A stretch of DNA of 54,533 nucleotides, counting the filler, from Sphacelaria rigidula (Eukaryota), in NCBI GenBank assembly GCA_964200075.2. It is 4 parts of 4 records of this genome, joined end to end, with 100 filler letters (N's around TTAATTAATTAA, not from the genome) between each part and the next. Parts side by side here need not be neighbours in the genome. Positions count along the whole stretch, not along the records: positions 13,662 to 27,220 come from CAXNAA020002801.1; 3 more parts are not named here. The stretch is one strand, 5' to 3'. Numbering within the stretch: position 1 is the stretch's first letter; the number at the start of each line of letters is the position of its first letter. This document shows, in pieces, positions 1,288-40,977 of the stretch. The notes below the pieces were generated by a model that saw nothing but the letters and a program-made list of their open reading frames with translations, had not been told where the DNA came from and made no database searches. Position numbers and translations under genes: made by a program.

Positions 1288-2062
1288 ATGCCTTTACTGA
1301 GACTGTGCCTTCGCGTGCTATTGTCGGCGCACCCCCTGGCAATGTAGATTCGCCGCATGCCCCTACTGAGACTGTGTCTTCGCGTGATACTGTCGGCGCA
1401 CCCCCGGGCAACGTAGATTTGTGTGCCCCTACTGAGACTGTGTCTTGGCATCCTTCTGTCGGCGCAACCCCGACTAGTGAAGCTCCGCTGCGTGCTATTG
1501 TCTTCGTGTGCTTCTGTCGGCGCACCCCCGACTAGTGCAGCTCCTCCGCGTGCCCCTACTGAGACTGTGTCTTCGCGTTCTACTGCGCAACCCCGACTAG
1601 GGCAGTTCCACCGCGTGCCCCTACTGAGGCTGTGTCTTCGCGTGCCACTATCGGCGCACCCGCGGGCAATGTAGATTCGCCGCACGCCCCTACTGAGACT
1701 GTGTCTTCGCGTGCTACTGTCGGCGCACCCCCGGGCAATGTAGATTCGTGTGCCCCAACTAAGACTGTGTCTTGGCATTCTTCTGTCGGCGCAACCACGA
1801 CTAGTGAAGCTTCGCCGCGTGCTCCTACTGAGACTCTGTCTTCGTGTGCTTCCGTCGGCGCACCCCCGACTAGTGTAGCTCCTCCGCGTGCCCCTACTGA
1901 GACTGTGTCTTCGCGTTCTATTGCCGGCGCAACCCCGACTAGGGCAGTTCCGCCGTGTGCCCCTACTGAGACTGTCTTCGCGTGCTTCTGTAGGCGCACC
2001 ACCTACTAAGGTGGCTTCGCCGCGTGCAACTATCGAAACTGTGTCTTCGCGTTCTACTGTCG
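1288..2062 (+). repeat. Tandem array of about 12 units of 60-69 bp inside Copia pol, with a 327-bp higher-order repeat
   Basis: Recurrent ACTGAGACTGTGTCTTCGCGTG...GTCGGCGCACCCC. Units at 1296/1365/1431 recur at 1623/1692/1758. Translates to (xAPTETVSSRxxVGAPP...)n. Confidence 0.95.
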
Positions 2063-2289
2063 ACGCATCCAGTAGGTTTCCCGCAGGATTGATTGCAGTT
2101 CCAGGTTTGGACTTACCTTACCTAAACCTTTTTTCACATTCATCGTCCAAGGAGCATAATATTGCTAAAGGTAGTCCCCTGGCGTTCTTCCCTCGAGTTC
2201 TACACACTCAGGAGTTAAGGGAGGAGGAGATTTTGGATTCGGCGCTTGCCGTTTTAGATCCCGGTCGTCGACCATCAACTGTCGGTAAA

Positions 2290-2811
2290 CCCCAACAAAC
2301 TGAGGACATTAATCACTTCCACCTTTCCTCCTCCCATGCTCATGAGACCATTTGTCGAGAAAACGCTGCCCAACAGGGCATAAATCTCACAGGACAGTTG
2401 GCGCCCTGCGCAGGATGCATGGAGGCTAAAGGGCGACGCGCAGCGATCCCACTTTCAAGTACTCGGTCGACTACGGTCCTCGGCATCGTACACCTGAACC
2501 TCACGGGACCGCATGTGCGGACACTGGGCGATTCACTATACATGCCCACTTGTGTGAATAGTGAGTCACGTTTCATCATGCCTTACGGTCTGGCGCGCAA
2601 GGCACAAGACTTGGCGAAGGTCAAGGGGTACATGGCCGCCGTCAATCAAATCGGCACTCCTCGGCGTTCCCGCGTCGATAACGGCGGTGAATTTTGTTCG
2701 CAGGATTTCATCGATTTCCGCGACGATGTACGAATTCGCCGCGAGTACACAGCGCCCGATATGCCGAAGCAGAATGCTGTAGCCGAGAGCGCAATCTGGC
2801 GCGTGATGTAG
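2290..2811 (+). pseudogene. Copia integrase core remnant
   Basis: ORF 1888..2811 contains the Zn-binding HH-CC motif and rve-like motifs. The first catalytic Asp appears as Asn (HLNLTGP), and there is a premature stop after SAIWRVM. Confidence 0.85.
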
Positions 2812-12915: not shown

Positions 12916-12925
12916 NNNNNNNNNN

Positions 12926-13561: not shown

Positions 13562-13661
13562 NNNNNNNNNNNNNNNNNNNNNNNNNNNNNNNNNNNNNNN
13601 NNNNNTTAATTAATTAANNNNNNNNNNNNNNNNNNNNNNNNNNNNNNNNNNNNNNNNNNNN
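13562..13661. other. Artificial contig-joining spacer
   Basis: 44 N + TTAATTAATTAA (stops in all six frames) + 44 N. Confidence 0.98.
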
Positions 13662-14995: not shown

Positions 14996-15652
14996 GGATG
15001 CTATTGATGTTCTCTACACTTTGTGCGAGCGGCCTCGCTCAGGTATTGGTATTCCGTGTTTTACCGAGACAAATTTGTGCTTGAACAAATCTGAGGATTT
15101 CAGCACAAATGACACATCCCCGCCGCGCAGTCATGCAATCTCGAATTGACCGTGGGTGATAGTGGGCGATCGAGGTTGGGGTCGCGGTCGAAGGAATCCG
15201 GACAGAAACCAGGCCCTCGACTGAAAAAAAAACACTACTCTTCGCTATGTCGGGATTCGAAATTATGACGAACACGGGTGGTGACGTCCGCCCACTCCGG
15301 CAATTCGTCGGTTCGCCAGCATGACCACCCGGGCGCAGGTTGCCACCATGCTGCGTTAACTTCTACGATCGTGCATGAATTTCGATTTCACCTTCAATAA
15401 TCGGAAATATTTGATATTTTTGTCTACTGCACCTTCAATAACTACGCCCAGAAAACAAATACGGTGGATCTCGAGCATGGGGCAAAAGGATGACTTCACA
15501 GGCTGACAGAATTTCCACATAGAAAAAACGAAAAAACTCGTTGTAAACTAAGGTTTTTTCACGAGCATTTATTCTGCACGCCAGCAGACTGCCAGAACAA
15601 TCGGAGCAACAAAGTTGGTCGACGTAGCGGCATCTTTCGTCACCACTGACAT

Positions 15653-18040
15653 CTACAGCGGGGGGCTAGACGATCCCAACTCCAACTTCACATTTGCGCA
15701 TTCCGTTGCCTCCTCGGACTCCACATCATCACACACAACAAGCTGGCCGGATAACACCGCTAGAGAACCACGAGGTCGCCGCATACTCTCATCATCACTG
15801 CTATGGCTTGCTTTATTACTGCCACTGGCAACTCCCCGATCACTCGAAAGGGCAACCCTCGTACTACGCTGTTTCATCCCCTCGCGAGTGCCGGCATGAG
15901 GAAGGACTGCCAGCTCCACCTTCATTCCTGCCCCTGCCGTCGCCTTCAACGACACGTTGTTATGCCCCAAGGATGGGTGTCCTGAGACCAGCGGCGGCAC
16001 TGTATCACCCTGCCCGGGCGGGAGGTCTACACAACGACGAGCACCAACACTGTGGCTTGCACCAGAACCCAAGTATGTTACGCGGATGCGTTTGGTTCCC
16101 CGTGCATCAGCATCGCAACCACCGTCACCCTCCGTCGAGCTGTGGCTAGAGGTGCCCGCACCCGTGGTGAGCCCTGCTGAGACGGTTACTCTGACCGAGT
16201 GGTGTCCAGCAGCATGCCGTCGACAAACGCTTGCCATACCGACGCCGTGCTTCGTGCAGACACCCCATTCGGAACAGCCCTCATGCGCGCACTTGGTATC
16301 CCCCAAATTCACCGTTTTCACCATTCCCTCTGTGGCATGTTGAGGCAAGACCTGCATCTTCTTGCTTCCGGCTGCACCATACGACGGACACTCAGGGGAG
16401 TCCGCGCGGCCGCATGTCTTTCGCACAACGCTCGTCATTCCGGCCGTGGCATGGTGGGAGCAGAATTGTGCATTCGCGCTTCCTGCCACACCCAAAGGAC
16501 GCTTTCGGCAGTGCTTATGGGCGCATCGCCTGTCCTTCACATTCACCATTCCCGGCCGCGCATGCTTGGGGCAGAAATCTCCCTTCTTGCTTCCGGCTAT
16601 ACCATACGACGCGCGCTTGGAGCAGCTCTCGTGGCCGCACTTCTTGGTTTTTACATTCACCATTCCCGGCGGCGCATGCTGGGAGCAGAACTCCATTTTC
16701 GTAGTCCCGGCTACACCATATAACGGATGGTGAAGGCAGCCCTCGTGGCCACACCTCCTATCCACCACATTTATCATTTCCGCCGTGGCATGCTGGGCGC
16801 AGAACTCCGCGTTGTTGCTCCGGGGTACACCGTACGACGGGCGCTTGGAGCAGCTCTCGTGGCCGCAGGTTTTGTGCTGCACATTCACCATTCCCGGCCA
16901 CGCATGCCCAGAGCAGAACCCTGCTTTCGTGCTTCCGGGTACACCGTACGACGGATTCTTGGAGCAGCCCTCGTGGCCGCACCTGTTGCCCTGTACACGC
17001 ACCATTCCCGGCAACGCATGCTGGAAGCAGAACCCCGCCTTCTCGCTTCCTGCTGAACCAAAACACCGACGCTTGAAGCAACCCTCGTGGCCACATCTCT
17101 TGTCCTTCACGTACACCATTTCCGGGGGAGCATGCTGGGAGCAGAACTCCCCCTTCCTGCTTCCAGCTGCACCATAGAACGGAAGCTTGAAGCAGGACTC
17201 ATGGCGGCACCTGGCGTCCCTCACAGGCACCATACCAGGAGGAGCATGTTCGGAACAGAATTCCGGCTTCTTGCTTACAGCTACGCCATACGACGGATGC
17301 TTGGAGCAGCCCTCGCGGCTGCACTTCCTCTTAATCACGCTCACCATACCAGGAAGAGCATGCTTAACACAGAATTCCGGCTTCTTGCTTCCAACTACGC
17401 CGTACGACGAATGCTTGGAGCAGCCCTCGTGGCCGCACCTCCTGCTCACCACGTTGACCATACCAGGAGGAGCATGCTGGATGCAGAACTCCGACTTCTT
17501 GCTTCCGGCCGCACCGTAACACGGACGCTTGCAGCAGCCCTCGTAACCGCACGTGTTGCTCACTACGTTGACCATTCCTGGAGGAGCATGCAGAGAGCAG
17601 AACTCCGCCTTCTTGCTTCCCGCTGCACCATACGACGGCCACTTGGAGCAGCTCTCATGGCCGCACCTTTTGCTCACTACGTTGACCATTCCCGGAGGAG
17701 CATGCAGAGAGCAGAACTCCGCCTTCTTGCTTCCCGCTGCACCATACGACGGGTACTTGGAGCAGCGCTCATGGCCGCACCTTTTTCTCGCTACGTTTAC
17801 CATTCCCGTGGAAGCATGCCGCGAGCAGAACTCCGCCTTCTTGCTTCCCGCTGCACCATACGACGGGTACTTGGAGCAGCCCTCATGGCCGCACCTTTTG
17901 CGCGCCACGTTTACCATTCCCGTGGAAGCATGCCGCGAGCAGAACTCCGCCTTCTTGCTTCCCGCTGCACCGTACGACGGGTATTCGGAGGACTGCTTTG
18001 TCGACAGCAGACTGCTCAGGGTAGCACGATTGTTAAACAC
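15653..18040 (-). CDS. EsV-1-7 cysteine-rich repeat protein (tandem 38-aa C-x4-C-x16-C-x2-H motifs) with a low-complexity C-terminal tail
   Basis: 795-codon uninterrupted frame with 13 complete, 1 partial and 2 degenerate repeats of consensus CGHEGCSKxPSYGxAGSKKAEFCSxHAPPGMVNVxxKR. The first ATG is at 17917; the true 5' end may be an upstream exon. Confidence 0.9.
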   Translation of the reverse strand: MFNNRATLSSLLSTKQSSEYPSYGAAGSKKAEFCSRHASTGMVNVARKRCGHEGCSKYPSYGAAGSKKAEFCSRHASTGMVNVARKRCGHERCSKYPSYGAAGSKKAEFCSLHAPPGMVNVVSKRCGHESCSKWPSYGAAGSKKAEFCSLHAPPGMVNVVSNTCGYEGCCKRPCYGAAGSKKSEFCIQHAPPGMVNVVSRRCGHEGCSKHSSYGVVGSKKPEFCVKHALPGMVSVIKRKCSREGCSKHPSYGVAVSKKPEFCSEHAPPGMVPVRDARCRHESCFKLPFYGAAGSRKGEFCSQHAPPEMVYVKDKRCGHEGCFKRRCFGSAGSEKAGFCFQHALPGMVRVQGNRCGHEGCSKNPSYGVPGSTKAGFCSGHAWPGMVNVQHKTCGHESCSKRPSYGVPRSNNAEFCAQHATAEMINVVDRRCGHEGCLHHPLYGVAGTTKMEFCSQHAPPGMVNVKTKKCGHESCSKRASYGIAGSKKGDFCPKHARPGMVNVKDRRCAHKHCRKRPLGVAGSANAQFCSHHATAGMTSVVRKTCGRADSPECPSYGAAGSKKMQVLPQHATEGMVKTVNLGDTKCAHEGCSEWGVCTKHGVGMASVCRRHAAGHHSVRVTVSAGLTTGAGTSSHSSTEGDGGCDADARGTKRIRVTYLGSGASHSVGARRCVDLPPGQGDTVPPLVSGHPSLGHNNVSLKATAGAGMKVELAVLPHAGTREGMKQRSTRVALSSDRGVASGSNKASHSSDDESMRRPRGSLAVLSGQLVVCDDVESEEATECANVKLELGSSSPPL

Positions 18041-21000
18041 GTGGGAGCGGGATTTTAAGCTGAAGGTGAAACCCCGTAGAGATAGTTGGCGAACGAATAG
18101 GACTTTTTGTTAGGCTGGGCCTTTTCGGCACCACGAAGACTACACTTCAACGTCACATTCGCTTGTGATTGGTCGCGGCGATACTATCCCGTGAAAGAGA
18201 GTTCATGCCCGAACGTGATTCGTGGCCACGGGAACGCGATTTATGGAAAATCTTCGGCAACTCCCTTGCAATTCTATGGGCTGCGAGAAGAGCATGTCTG
18301 ATACGGGAACATGAGAGTGCGGCACACGCACTGCACGGTGATCCTGACCCCTTCAACACACGCATCGCATCCCACTACTCGCGAAGTATATATGTATGTA
18401 GTCTTTCTATTTTATTGATCGGATTCTAAACGACCCCGCGGGTGTGGCAGCTCGAAACTGAGCGAAGCATTGGCGGAAACGGAAAAGGAGTTGTCCCAAA
18501 AGCGAGATGTGGAGAACATGAACTGCTACCGACGGAATATTTCCGCCGGCGGGGACTGCTGCGTCAACCGTACTAAAATCTACCGTTCAGTCGAACGCCT
18601 GGTGGCAGGGTTACGAGGCAGGACAAACGTTTATCTTCTACAGTTGTTCAAACGTTGCGAGGGTCGGACAAATGATTACTCTTCTGAAAACTACTTGCTC
18701 TCAGAGTCATTTATTCATAGCTTACCAATCTATCCTTGGGCTTTGTTTTCGGCGTTACACCTCAGGTACGCGCACCCCAGGCTCCTGGACAACGCAAACA
18801 AAAATGCGTGATACGTGCTTGACCTGCGATCAACCTTTTCTTTCGATCATCCAGGCCGCGGAAAACGTAGATTTGGTGATTCGAATCAGCGACGATTTGT
18901 CCGACCCTTGAAGAGTTATCAATAGTTTGGCCGGGTCCCGTCCCGGTGCATGACTCGTCGCTTTACATGATGTTTCGGCAGTTTTTGCGATGTGGGGTTG
19001 AGATCGAGACTCAAAACTAGTCGTTCTGGGCCTGAGTGACATTTGCGAATGAGACGTGCCGTCGCGACTAGAAACGCCCATATCACACAAGAAAAGGGGA
19101 ATGACAGGAGCAACCTGCATTTAAATAAATCGACGCCGCATGCAACTTCATCCCGACTAGCAGGAACCTAGTGCCCAGAATATCTTTAGTAAGCAGGACG
19201 TTCTCGACGGCGCTACCAAGTGGAAAGAAGTGAAACATGGCCGTAGCAAAAGGCATAATGTACGTGCTGCAGAAAGCAATGCGCATCATAGCGATACCCA
19301 CGCAAACCCAGCCGTGAAGGGAAATGGACATGTCCATCAATGTGCAAATCGCCCGAGGCTAGAACAGAACGGGCTGACTTGGCAACGACTTTACAACATG
19401 ATAGGCCCAGGTCCTATATTCAAAGTAGGTGAACATTTGACACAATGGCATGAACTTTTACTCGAAAAACGCACATGCACGGGCACGCTGGGGCATACGA
19501 TCGTTGTCGACGCTCAAAGAAGCCATCGAAGAAATACTGTTTGTATCATGACTTGGGGGAAATGTTGCGGCGACGTCATATCTAGCCAGGCTTGGGAACA
19601 GCACGGGAACGAACGCGACCCTCATGTACTGCCGGTGTTCCTGCGCTGGATCCGGTAGTCATCTATATGGCACTCAAGGATACAGTCAACGAAATTCCCT
19701 ACAGCCAGCGTATTGAGTGAGATCTTCAGAACCTTTATTTTTAGGGAGGAAAGTTGTTGCGCATGTTTGTGGAGGATCACATGGTACCCATTCATACGTA
19801 CACCTGACTAAGATGGGACCATTCGCAGAGAAGCACGCTGGTGTGTTTTCGCGTTTGCCGCTGTGTGTATTCTATGCTACGGGACCGTAAAAAACAATTG
19901 CCCGTTTTCCGTCTCGAAACGTTCGCCGATCTAGCTTTTGCTGAGCAAATCCTTGACAACTACTGCATCCACAATCACCGACGGCGAGACGACACTAAGA
20001 GTACAGCAATACACAGTGCTACATTTCCTAGGGACAACCACCACTTCTTCTGGCAGTACTCGAAGATTCACATCCTACCCCTACAGCTACGGCACAAACC
20101 TATCCCCGCCACTTCGTGTAGCCGCTACCACCAATAACGAGAGGTCATGGCGGAAGTGTCAGACTGGGGACGACGCCGATGATTGGAGAGAATGAGCGTC
20201 GTTCACACGTGTTACACACCCCGTGAGTGATGACAGTATACACAGCTATCGAAGACGGAACCCACAATGTAATCACAAACGCACGCTATCTTTCATTGGG
20301 GATTTGTTTCATGGCGAACTTCGTTGAGTTTTTGATATGGTTCTGTTGTGGTGGCTACATACAGACGGTATCTCATATTTTTATGGTTGAATATAGGACA
20401 CTCTATAAAGATAAATTGCCGCGTGTCCAGAGCGTTTCCAATTTCAATTTATTTCGATGTTTGTGACGTTGCTGTCTCGGATTTCAGCGGTGAAACCGGA
20501 GCGGTATCGGCTGGGTCCTTCAACTCTAAAATGAAGGTCTGCCTGTAACTCATCTTGTATTTACACGTAGTATCTATTCCCTTACGGTAGGTAGTGGAGG
20601 GACTAGTGGACTCGTTTCAGTACCAAAACGCCCGGGAATCATCATGTAAATGCTCTGTCTTGTGTCTCGATCGACTCACGTGTTTCATGCTAATAATAAA
20701 AACTGCCTGTACTGCAGTATAGTTGCGTCCTTGCATTCCTCGACATAAACTACGCTTCCCGCGCCTCGCACGGTGTGCAATCCACAGTTTATGATAGCCA
20801 GAGCATGTCGGTGGCGTTTGTATCATGCATATTCGTTTTTGAACTGGTACGGTATGCTATTTGGTACAGCAGGCCGCATCGGCAGTACTAGATCGGAAAA
20901 AAACTGGTTCACCACACCTCCAAGTGAAACAACGATGGACTCGCTGGCATCCCTCCTGCGTGTTTTCGAAAAATTCGTGATGAAACGTGAGGAACAATCC

Positions 21001-27220: not shown

Positions 27221-27320
27221 NNNNNNNNNNNNNNNNNNNNNNNNNNNNNNNNNNNNNNNNNNNNTTAATTAATTAANNNNNNNNNNNNNNNNNNNNNNNN
27301 NNNNNNNNNNNNNNNNNNNN
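27221..27320. other. Artificial contig-joining spacer
   Basis: 44 N + TTAATTAATTAA + 44 N. Confidence 0.98.
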
Positions 27321-28374: not shown

Positions 28375-31300
28375 TCATTCGGCTCCACGCTCATCGAAGG
28401 AGTGAAAGTTTCCCCTCACTGGTGACCGTTTCTGGATGCCTTGATAGACCCGCTTTGAGCAACTACATTCGGGTATACTGTACAGCTTCGATCTTCCATG
28501 TGTCTCGCAAGTGACAGCGTCTAATAGTTGTGCATCGAATGTGTTTATGACCAAGTTGTAGGTGATGACATCGGGCATGATACCCTCGGCCTTCATCTCC
28601 TCCAACAACGACAAAGCTTGCGCCAGCTGCCCACCGTCATCCCCGCATGCCGCGATGGTCGCCGTGTAGATTTTGACATCAGGGTTGATATCTTCCCTTG
28701 GCATTTCCCTCGATAGAGATAAAGCGTGCTCTAGCCGTCCTCCGAGGGCGCATGATCTGATGGCAGAATTATATGCTATGACATTGGGCACGATACCATC
28801 GGCCTTCATCTCTCCCAACAGTGACACAGCCTGCTGCCACTGACCACCGCATGCCGTGATGACCGAGCTGTACATTATGACATCTGGAACGATACCCTCG
28901 ATCTTCGCCTCCCTCTGCAGCGATAGAGACTTTTCAAGTTGTCCACTGTCCCCGCATACCTTGATCGCCGTGGTGTACGTCGTGACATCAGGTACTATAC
29001 CCTCCGTCTTCATCTCTCTCAACAGCGACAACGCCTGCTCCCGCTCTCCACCGCATGCGTTGATAGCTGTATTATACGTCATGACTCCAGGGATAACACC
29101 CTCGTTCCTCATCTCCCTCAACAGTGACAAAGCTTTCGCGGATTGCCCACTGTTCCTGCATACCTTAAATAGCGGAATTGTAAATTGCGATATCCGGGGC
29201 CAAACCCTCGCTTTTGACCTCCTCCAATAGCGCCAGAGCCTGCTCCCACTGCTTACCGTATGCGTTGATAGCTGTATTATACGTTATGATATCAGGGATA
29301 ACACCCTCGTTCCTCATCTCCCTCAATAGTGACAAAGCTTTCGCGGATTGCCCACTGTTCCCGCATACCTTAATAGCGGAATTGTAAGTTGCGAAATCCG
29401 GGGCCAAACCCTCGCTTTTGACCTCCTCCAATAGCGCCAGAGCCTGCTCCCACTGCTTACCGCATGCGTTGATAGCTGTATTATACGTTATGATATCAGG
29501 GATAACACCCTCGACCCTCATCTCCCTCAACAGCGACAAAGCCTGCGCCAGCTGTTCACCGTCATCCCCGCACGCCGCAATGGCCGAGTTGTAGGTCCTG
29601 ACGTCGGGATTGATACCTACCCTTGGCATCTCCCTCAAAAGCGACAAAGCCTGCTCCAGCTGTCCACCGTCACCGCATGCCGTGATGGCAGAGTTGTACG
29701 TTATTACATCAGGCGCGATACCCTCTGTTGTCATCCCCCTCAGCAGCGACAAAGCTTGCTCGAGCTGCCCACCACTCCCGCATACTCTGATGGCCGAGTT
29801 TAATGTTATGACATTAGGCATGATACCGTCGGCCTTCATCTCTCCCAACAGCGACAAGGCTTGCTTCCACTGATTACCGCATGCATTGATCGCTGAGCTG
29901 TACGTTTGGACGTTAGGTGCGACACCCTCAGCTTTCATCTCCCTCAACAGTGACATAGCATGCGCCAGCTGTCCACCGTCATCCCCGCATGCTGAAATAA
30001 CTCCTGTGTAGGTTATGGCATCAGGACTGATACCCTCCCTTCGCATCTGCCTCAACAGCAAAATAGCCTGCTCGAGCTGTCCACCTTCACCGCATACCTT
30101 GATGGCCGAGCTATAGGTGATTATACCAGGCACGATACCATCGGTTTTCATCTCCCTCACGAGTGACAAGGCATGTTTCCACTGACCACCGCACGCCATG
30201 ATGGCCGAGCTGTAGGTAATGGCATTGGGAGCAATACCTTTGGCCTTCATCTCCCTCAACAGCGACAAAGCCTGGGCCAGCTGTCCACCATCGCCCCCGC
30301 ATGCCTTGATGGCCGAGCTGTAGGTGATGACATTGGGGGCAATACCTTCGGCCTCTGCCTCTCTCAAGAGCGACAGAGCCGGCTTCCATTGCTTACCGCA
30401 CGCCATGATGGCTGAGTTGTAAGACACGACATCAGGCATGATACCCCTCGTCTTCATTTCCCTCAACAGCGACAGCGCTTGCGCCAGCTGTCTACCGTCA
30501 TCTCCGCACGCCGCGATGGCCGAGTTGTAGGTAATGGCATCGGGGGCAATACCTTTGGCCTTCATCTCCCTCAACAGCGACAAAGCATGGGCCAGCTGTC
30601 CCCCGTTACCGCATGCCTTGATGGCCGAGTTGTAGGTGATGACATCGGGGGCAATACCTTCGGCCTCTGCCTCTCTCAAGAGCGACAGAGCCGGCTTCCA
30701 TTGCTTACCGCACGCCATGATGGCTGAGGTGTAAGACACGACATTAGGCATGATACCCCTCGTCTTCATTTCCCTCAACAGCGACAAAGCCTGCTCCCAC
30801 CGATGACCGCATGCCTTGATGGCCGAGCTGTAGGTTACGACGTCAGGTACGAGCCCCTCGGTTTCCATCTCCCTCAGGAGCGACAACGCCTTGTTTGAGC
30901 GCCCAGCCTTGCCGCAAGCCATAATAGCCTGGAGGTAGCACATATTATCAGGGCGCACACCACCCACCTCCCGCATAAACGCTAACAGTTTGACGGCTTC
31001 CTCCCAGTGACCGCCTTTCACAGTCGTTTTCAAAGCGGTATAATATATATGTACAGTCACGACCAAGCGTGAGTCATCGCGAGCCAAAGCTTCCGCCAAG
31101 ACTCCCCTTACCCTACCCCATTCTCGCCGGTCCCCCGCTTGCTTGATACGATCCAAGTACAGTTTTTGTATAGCTTGGATACCGGCAGGTGGCCGTTGCC
31201 TATTTCCCCACCCGCCGGCTTGCCGTCCGCCTCGTCCAACACCTCTGTGACCCCGACCGCCTGCACGACCATCGCCAAATGGCCGCTGTCCATTTCCCCT

Positions 31301-31594
31301 TCCGCGACCTCGCGGCCCTCCTTTGTCACAACCACCTCGATAACGACCGCCATCATGGCCTCTCATCATGCGTGTGCGGGATAACGTGTCGCTGACAGAT
31401 GGTCCATCTGTCGGGCTAGCGGTGGAGAATAATTGTGCACACGGCAGCCGGACGCCAACAGCACCATTCGCTGCACGCGTGGAGGGCGCCATCATTATCC
31501 AGGGGTTGGCGGTGACCACAACACCTCCAAGAACCATGACATTTGGCATGTACCTTTCATCCAGGCAGCATGGGGAAGCGGGCGAGGACAACAT
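28375..31594 (-). CDS. Pentatricopeptide repeat (PPR) protein, about 24 repeats, probably organelle (mitochondrion) targeted; 1-bp frameshift at ~29168
   Basis: ORFs 29165..31615 and 28375..29130 carry contiguous VITYNSAIxACG..ALSLLREMKxxGIxPD repeats. The N-terminus has a presequence-like segment (..QLFSTAS..) and an RGG-rich stretch. An extra A at 29167-29169, relative to the paralogous repeat at 29372-29373, breaks the frame. Confidence 0.93.
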
Positions 31595-31629
31595 ACCACG
31601 ATTAGGACAGATCAAGATTTATACGAGTC

Positions 31630-40877: not shown

Positions 40878-40977
40878 NNNNNNNNNNNNNNNNNNNNNNN
40901 NNNNNNNNNNNNNNNNNNNNNTTAATTAATTAANNNNNNNNNNNNNNNNNNNNNNNNNNNNNNNNNNNNNNNNNNNN
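40878..40977. other. Artificial contig-joining spacer
   Basis: 44 N + TTAATTAATTAA + 44 N. Confidence 0.98.

Follow-up and report, generated by a model that had tools for sequence, protein, structure and literature searches.

The stretch of DNA considered here, referred to below as the window, comprises 54,533 nucleotides (nt) of the brown alga Sphacelaria rigidula (GenBank assembly GCA_964200075.2) and joins parts of four records of this genome. Its principal feature is a long open reading frame (ORF) on the minus strand of the part that comes from CAXNAA020002801.1. The encoded protein, P0001, carries a tandem array of Cys/His repeats of 38 amino acids (aa) and matches Pfam family PF19114 (EsV_1_7_cys) with 682.5 bits at a cut-off of 25 (E 5.3e-211, 15 stretches); the Pfam scan of the ORF found no family besides this one. 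The features of the window are collected in Table 1.

According to recent accounts EsV-1-7 proteins form a large, tandemly clustered family that has expanded in brown algae (10.1101/2024.02.19.579948; 10.64898/2026.04.27.720984), with 2018 members across 31 genomes by the count given in the first of these sources (10.1101/2024.02.19.579948). The domain is described as a possible new zinc finger, its function not being known (10.1101/2024.02.19.579948; PMC7457493; PMC12477816). The closest homologues of P0001 were EsV-1-7 proteins named from Sphacelaria rigidula, Ectocarpus, Pylaiella, Scytosiphon and Ascophyllum. The best of them, from Sphacelaria rigidula itself, was 62% identical across 36% of the query; near-identical proteins were absent and the homologue search found no orthologue. 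Judged from its sequence, the ORF is an ordinary host (brown-algal) member of the family.

Table 1. Features of the window. Positions count along the window; aa numbers refer to the 795-codon reading of P0001.
Feature	Position	Strand	Remarks
EsV-1-7 family gene (P0001)	15653..18040	-	single ORF, 795 codons plus stop
First in-frame ATG (residue 42)	17915..17917	-	likely start if the gene is a single exon
Candidate 3' untranslated region	15422..15652	-	contig ends of three small runs at 15422/15429
Truncated first unit R0 (aa 20-49)	17894..17983	-	unit positions 9-38 only; ligands C1 and C6 absent
Twelve intact 38-aa units R1-R12 (aa 50-505)	16526..17893	-	C-x4-C-x16-C-x2-H-x12, exact 38-aa register
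Unit R13, 37 aa (aa 506-542)	16415..16525	-	one residue deleted near position 11; four ligands kept
Two degenerate units (aa 543-621)	16178..16414	-	beyond R13
Non-repeat C-terminal tail, 174 aa (aa 622-795)	15656..16177	-	net charge about -1; homologue undetected
Two adjacent PPR ORFs	29165-31615 and 28375-29130	-	PPR_2, E 2e-139 (14 stretches) and E 3e-40
Integrase-core ORF	1888-2811	+	rve 28.6 bits, cut-off 32.6 (sub-threshold), E 1.8e-6
N-run pairs (44 bases each, 12 apart)	13562-13661, 27221-27320, 40878-40977; also 12916-12925		recur about every 13.66 kb

The ORF was read from a GTG codon under translation table 11, and the start used in a eukaryote must be internal to this frame. A start at the first in-frame ATG would give a product of 754 aa beginning MVNVARKRC...; no ATG precedes the truncated first unit R0 in the 795-codon ORF. 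The extent of the gene was compared with contigs from eight sequencing runs whose kind is either guessed or not recorded. Three small runs, which belong to two studies and are RNA only by guess, have contigs that span 15422/15429 to about 17965, and one of these contigs is continuous from 15429 to 17609 without a joint. The small runs have zero depth at 15001-15334 and 18007-18173 and their contigs are faint upstream beyond 18282 (depth 3.2 or less); the deep DNA run spans everything. If the small runs are RNA, this gives a weak hint that the gene is a single exon with its 3' end near 15422. Contigs of some runs differ by one letter at 17277, 17504 and 16410. By codon reading the difference at 17277 (A>C) would replace V16 in R6 by G, the consensus residue of the family, that at 17504 falls on a third codon position and that at 16410 sits in the first degenerate unit.

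At the DNA level the array appeared as a tandem repeat with a period of 114 nt (Tandem Repeats Finder, 16538-17980: 12.7 copies, 78% matches, score 1193), and there are no Ns inside the array region 16190-17990. The ligand spacing C-x4-C-x16-C-x2-H was found in 12 consecutive strict units, in the 37-aa unit and in one distal unit. The first of the two degenerate units lacks C23; the second retains C-x4-C...C-x2-H and is altered in its interior. Across the 13-14 units no variation is seen at C1, C6, G13, F22, C23, H26 and M31, or at A27 and V34. Units R0-R3, which share 83-96% DNA identity, are recent copies. Further EsV-1-7 units were not found in any frame of the window, and a comparison of the tail region (aa 600-795) with 3239 candidates, all proteins of 437-1392 aa, gave no match at E 0.001 or less.

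An earlier note on this DNA, made from the sequence alone, had placed a 38-aa EsV-1-7 array at 16190-17990, and both the PF19114 match and the 38-aa register bear it out. The note had described C1, C6, G13, F22-C23, H26 and M31 as near-invariant, and they proved to be invariant. Its residue lists for the positions that it called hypervariable were reproduced letter for letter: across the units position 9 reads YYYWRHHLRNRHRR, and positions 35-36 read AR, AR, VS, VS, VS, IK, RD, KD, QG, QH, VD, KT, KD, VR. It was also right in stating that EsV-1-7 repeats are common to phaeoviruses and brown algae.

Repeat-specific positions and selection

Variation in the window array is graded and not limited to three sites. 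The variability was 2.56 bits at position 36, 2.55 at 25, 2.35 at 35, 2.30 at 9 and 2.27 at 28, with positions 18, 20, 24, 7 and 37 slightly less variable. The variability profile of the array follows that of the family (Spearman 0.67), and the pattern belongs to the EsV-1-7 family, not being special to the window array. When the 120 homologues were taken together (633 strict units), 3 bits were exceeded at 16 of the 38 positions, and positions 9, 35 and 36 were unremarkable at this level.

Diversity within arrays was assessed in 89 arrays with 560 units, the window protein being left out, and with 1000 bootstraps over arrays. The chance that two units of one array differ was 0.81 at position 9, 0.80 at position 36 and 0.78 at position 35. 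It was 0.72 or less at all remaining positions, the next tier lying at 0.67-0.72. Positions 9 and 36 were among the top three in 100% of the bootstraps and position 35 in 98%. The same three positions, now in the order 35, 36, 9, came first in the 18 arrays named from brown algae. Two sets of nuclease-fused arrays (see below) were led by positions 11, 9 and 36, followed by 35 or 25. The ratio of within-array to between-array diversity was 0.92 at position 9, 0.93 at 36 and 0.90 at 35; at positions 2, 14, 15 and 28 the units of one protein were more alike (ratios 0.71-0.76). Positions 9, 35 and 36 are, by a moderate margin, the repeat-specific positions of the family. The contrast drawn earlier between a fixed scaffold and a small number of hypervariable sites is weak: these three positions rank first across arrays, but the gap to the next tier is small, and in the window array positions 25 and 28 are equally variable.

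A scan for covariation, using mutual information with the average product correction, covered 695 pairs of neighbouring units. The strongest couplings linked the same position in adjacent units (27, 13, 15, 28, 7 and 14 among others); positions 9, 11, 35 and 36 did not appear there. No coupling was seen among positions 9, 35 and 36 in these pairs, either within a unit or to the next one (z 2.8 or less). In the family sequences positions 7, 9 and 11 vary and positions 8, 10 and 12 are conserved (K, P and Y/F). If the segment is extended, such an alternation would turn all the variable side chains to the same side.

Selection was studied in two different lineages, namely on the window array's own units and on pairs of giant-virus orthologues. 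Among the 14 window units the median pairwise ratio of non-synonymous to synonymous substitution rates (dN/dS) was 0.35, and 2 of 90 pairs lay above 1. On a neighbour-joining tree 72.2 changes were counted as synonymous and 146.8 as non-synonymous, which gives 0.56 as the overall ratio. No non-synonymous change was seen at nine of the 38 codon positions (1, 6, 13, 22, 23, 26, 27, 31 and 34), five of which did have synonymous changes. This ratio and these nine positions show that the scaffold evolves under purifying selection. Relative to the pooled synonymous rate, position 36 evolved at 1.71, position 35 at 1.67, position 28 at 1.39 and position 9 at 1.17. The set of positions 9, 35 and 36 had 33 non-synonymous changes against 21.9 expected (ratio 1.51), with a nominal Poisson P of 0.016 that comes from one 14-unit array and ignores both the error of dS and the undercounting by parsimony. 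These three positions of the window array are borderline, neutral to weakly diversifying.

For the viral comparison 75 of 80 loci yielded a gene, and 11 pairs at 73-96% identity were formed in which each locus was used once; 64 of their 72 units could be aligned. The pooled ratio of non-synonymous to synonymous differences (pN/pS) was 0.31 and no position reached 1. The values were 0.76 at position 9, 0.72 at 11, 0.65 at 25, 0.53 at 36 and 0.35 at 35, and diversifying selection between the orthologues of these 11 pairs was not seen at positions 9, 36 and 35. The rates between orthologues follow the diversity within arrays (Spearman 0.88). The contrast between fast change among paralogues and slow change between orthologues fits specificity residues, yet relaxed constraint explains most of it.

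These results bear directly on the possibility that the array is a programmable reader, each module recognising one or a few bases through position 9 and positions 35-36 (perhaps also 11, 25 and 28) in a manner similar to C2H2, TALE or PPR proteins. Such a function would agree with the first rank of positions 9, 36 and 35 both in the 89 arrays and in the brown-algal ones, and with a diversity within arrays that nearly matches that between arrays. Residues that set specificity would be expected to change fast after duplication and then to be retained, as was seen in the excess of changes in the window array and in the low ratios between viral orthologues. It would also agree with the exchange of array types on one nuclease domain described below. 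Against it, the contrast with other positions is graded instead of bimodal, the nominal P value comes from a single array and the two selection results from different lineages. Moreover, the fastest positions between orthologues are simply the most variable ones, as would be the case under relaxed constraint alone, and positions 9, 35 and 36 do not covary. On this evidence a programmable reader of this kind seems doubtful.

Nuclease fusions and the fold of the module

In 64 of 121 proteins (the 120 homologues and the window protein) a conserved domain follows the array on its C-terminal side. The motif RPD..E.DE.QH..R..R.NPD is invariant in the 64 relatives. An alignment of 63 proteins shows P322, D323, E336, D338, E339, H342, R353, R370, N372, P373 and D374 to be invariant, in the numbering of the relative P0026. 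Ten relatives that were scanned matched PF19114 at E 1e-85 to 1e-127; their C-terminal domain was not recognised by Pfam, nor was the domain recognised by PHROGs or NCBIfam. A profile of the fusion proteins gave one chance-level row (E 0.83) against the PDB sequences, and this row lay in the repeat part.

An AlphaFold2 model of P0026, with a mean predicted local distance difference test (pLDDT) of 90.3, has a C-terminal core of the order helix-strand-strand-strand-helix-strand. Among the Foldseek matches listed for this domain, most, including all of the top 20, were proteins of the restriction-endonuclease fold: R2 endonuclease, McrC, Hjc, members of the Cas4 family and cap-snatching endonucleases. 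VIA-align ranked the homing endonuclease I-Bth0305I (catalytic domain) first, with Z 8.5 and a root-mean-square deviation (rmsd) of 3.1 over 95 of 97 residues. Vsr was found at Z 7.1, 60 of 1000 chains reached Z 5 or more, and nearly all of the 50 rows listed were restriction-endonuclease-fold proteins. On this model the C-terminal domain of the relatives is predicted to have a Vsr/EDxHD-like PD-(D/E)xK nuclease fold.

The fusion recurs in giant-virus contigs. A pattern scan of IMG/VR built on the alignment showed that at least 575 giant-virus stretches encode it (575 of at least 600 matching), many of them on contigs labelled as giant-virus metagenome-assembled genomes (MAGs); a scan of IMG/VR with P0026 alone had found no relative. 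Two giant-virus records carry one and two fusion genes, and these numbers do not match the multicopy pattern of some selfish nucleases. A literature search, with supplementary tables outside its scope, yielded no report that ties EsV-1-7 repeats to a nuclease fusion.

A search with the nuclease domain alone gave 1094 relatives (E 0.001 or less), of which the nearest (50-55% identity) bear, instead of an EsV-1-7 array, another tandem Cys/His repeat of about 19 aa. This repeat is CEHGKRKSxCKxCGGSxI-like and occurs in 8 to about 20 copies in P0122, P0129, P0130, P0159, P0191, P0207 and P0220. It was not recognised by Pfam, save for a sub-threshold match to DUF7895 in one protein. A loose EsV-like pattern fitted the N-terminal part of 75 of 119 relatives of the nuclease domain, a count that is unreliable because the 19-aa repeat fits this pattern by chance. 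The BFVD matches listed include giant-virus proteins that bear the name Endonuclease, one called DUF559 domain-containing and several called C2H2-type domain-containing. One nuclease-fused relative, P0081, has a helicase-associated domain (HA, PF03457) on the N-terminal side of its EsV-1-7 array. Among brown algae, one source describes a Tc1/mariner transposase that carries an EsV-1-7 domain at its N-terminus (PMC12477816). Judging from these architectures, tandem arrays of putative zinc modules, EsV-1-7 included, sit repeatedly where the targeting domain lies in enzymes that cut or move DNA.

The fold of the module itself is confidently predicted. The AlphaFold2 model of R5-R8, computed from an alignment of 129 rows, had a mean pLDDT of 89.9 and a predicted template modelling score of 0.54. 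Each of the four units has short predicted strands at positions 12-13, 22 and 32-33 and no helix of four or more residues. The array in the model of P0026 repeats this strand pattern. The array is strongly basic: aa 42-620 (579 residues) contain 87 K+R and 36 D+E, a net charge of +51.

Possible function of the array

The proposed mechanism starts from about 13 compact 38-aa modules arranged in a chain and followed by an orphan tail without a catalytic domain. Each module would be built on the metal ligands C1, C6, C23 and H26 and on the packing residues P10, Y12, G13, G16, F22, A27, G30, M31, V32 and V34, and probably binds zinc. Through its basic array the protein would bind nucleic acid, DNA being the most likely target, and would act as a regulator without catalytic activity; such a role has been proposed for the family member IMMEDIATE UPRIGHT (IMM). 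The conserved basic positions 8, 18, 19, 37 and 38 would hold the backbone. The repeat-specific positions 9, 35 and 36, and after them 11, 25 and 28, would form a surface that differs from module to module.

Nucleic-acid binding by the array is the best-supported reading and, from the sequence comparisons, appears on balance probable. DNA binding would be the most likely activity because EsV-1-7 arrays stand in front of a nuclease or a transposase and because of the net charge of the array. Several observations weigh against it. The nuclease motif is absent from P0001 and was found in 0 of 21 homologues named from brown algae; the evidence from fusions is that of distant, mostly viral relatives. 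The individual matches of the C-terminal domain of P0026 are modest: Foldseek gave nothing at or below E 0.001, and a single VIA-align row had Z 8 or more. The model of R5-R8 gave no Foldseek row against the PDB at E 0.001 or less (best 2.1) and none of 48161 representative chains at Z 2 or more in VIA-align, results that do not show a new fold, four modules being a poor query for a 38-aa domain. There is no solved analogue of the module, and consequently no known DNA-binding fold can be invoked. The truncated first unit, the decayed last two and the orphan tail would also fit a young and loosely constrained gene, and the transcript-like runs are only guessed to be RNA. The suggestion of the earlier note that the array binds nucleic acid thus gains from the charge and from the fusions to nuclease and transposase, and loses from the unfused brown-algal homologues and the missing analogue of the module fold.

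It might be thought that the modules form a zinc-stabilised scaffold for contacts with proteins or with other partners that are not nucleic acids, as LIM, B-box and RING domains do, the variable positions tuning the choice of partner or being idle. Small Cys/His modules often mediate protein contacts, and the EsV-1-7 module resembles no solved DNA-binding fold. The host proteins give no direct clue, since none of the Ectocarpus members is described as having another Pfam domain in the account of that family (10.64898/2026.04.27.720984). So basic an array (net +51 in 579 residues) would, however, be unusual as a pure protein adaptor, and the arrays recur ahead of a nuclease, and once ahead of a transposase, where a DNA-targeting domain would be expected. 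We consider a scaffold of this kind unlikely. A young, lineage-restricted repeat expansion with little or no specific function, its hypervariable sites being the least constrained ones that drift after duplications, would account for the truncated first unit without an ATG ahead of it, the decayed terminal units, the orphan tail, the missing orthologue, the recent copies R0-R3, a variability profile that follows the family and rates near the synonymous rate at the variable positions, but it is very unlikely given that the 795-codon frame remains open, that purifying selection acts on the scaffold (dN/dS 0.35 to 0.56) and, as a weak point, that the contigs of the three small runs match the extent of the gene.

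If nucleic-acid binding is taken further, EsV-1-7 arrays may represent an unrecognised class of modular DNA-recognition proteins. Giant viruses would use them to aim a Vsr/EDxHD-like nuclease, interchangeably with at least one other type of tandem zinc module, and brown algae would have retained and multiplied the arrays without the nuclease as sequence-specific regulators such as IMM, with positions 9, 35 and 36 (together with 11 and 25) setting the preference. This wider proposal is tentative, and we would not expect it to hold in full. If it is true, the giant-virus fusions would be natural zinc-module nucleases. EsV-1-7 is among the largest gene-family expansions of brown algae and includes a developmental regulator, IMM. 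The shared repeat-specific positions and the nuclease partners in hundreds of giant-virus contigs make DNA recognition testable: the viral fusions offer cleavage as a read-out of array binding, and positions 9, 35 and 36 are the natural candidates for exchange. A code, if it exists, would make the module a novel protein scaffold with which DNA could be targeted, and would explain the co-option of a virus-derived domain for development. If there is no code, the gene simply adds another member to a known family.

The remaining features of the window lie apart from this gene. The two adjacent PPR ORFs probably represent a single PPR gene that an intron or a frame change interrupts, and this gene is unrelated to the EsV-1-7 array. 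The integrase-core ORF, its match being below the cut-off, suggests a decayed retroelement. The presence of PPR genes and an integrase fragment indicates that the window is nuclear DNA. The regular spacing of the N runs looks like masking or scaffolding and not like biology. Rfam families were not found in the window.

Relation to known systems

P0001 shares with IMM and the rest of the PF19114 family the tandem C-x4-C-x16-C-x2-H-x12 unit and the lack of any other Pfam domain. IMM is described as consisting of five repeats and a unique N-terminal domain (10.1101/2024.02.19.579948); P0001 differs from it, with about 13 intact units followed by a C-terminal tail of orphan sequence. The founding array of the family is the EsV-1-7 protein of Ectocarpus siliculosus virus 1 (Q8QNQ2 in the naming of BFVD), a viral protein of 378 aa. 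The array of the relative P0026, not that of the window protein, superposes on its predicted structure over 233 columns with an rmsd of 2.3 and 40% identity.

The giant-virus fusions, represented by P0026 and by the BFVD 'Endonuclease' proteins of Faunusvirus, cedratvirus and Pithovirus-like MAGs, have homologous arrays in which variation at positions 9 and 36 is likewise high. Unlike P0001 they possess the C-terminal domain of predicted PD-(D/E)xK fold. The layout of these relatives, though not of the window protein, is that of I-Bth0305I, the EDxHD prototype, in which DNA-binding modules at the N-terminus are reported to precede a Vsr-like nuclease at the C-terminus (PMC3239194). In I-Bth0305I these modules are NUMOD and helix-turn-helix elements instead of zinc modules, and the C-terminal domain of the relatives has no sequence match to any solved chain.

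Finally, the EsV-1-7 array can be compared with C2H2, TALE and PPR arrays. It has no Pfam match to any of them, its ligands are spaced differently and its module has no solved fold analogue. The likeness would lie in the tandem arrangement of modules of fixed length, in a conserved scaffold and in a few module-specific positions. The window protein is not a C2H2, TALE or PPR protein; by analogy it may work like one.

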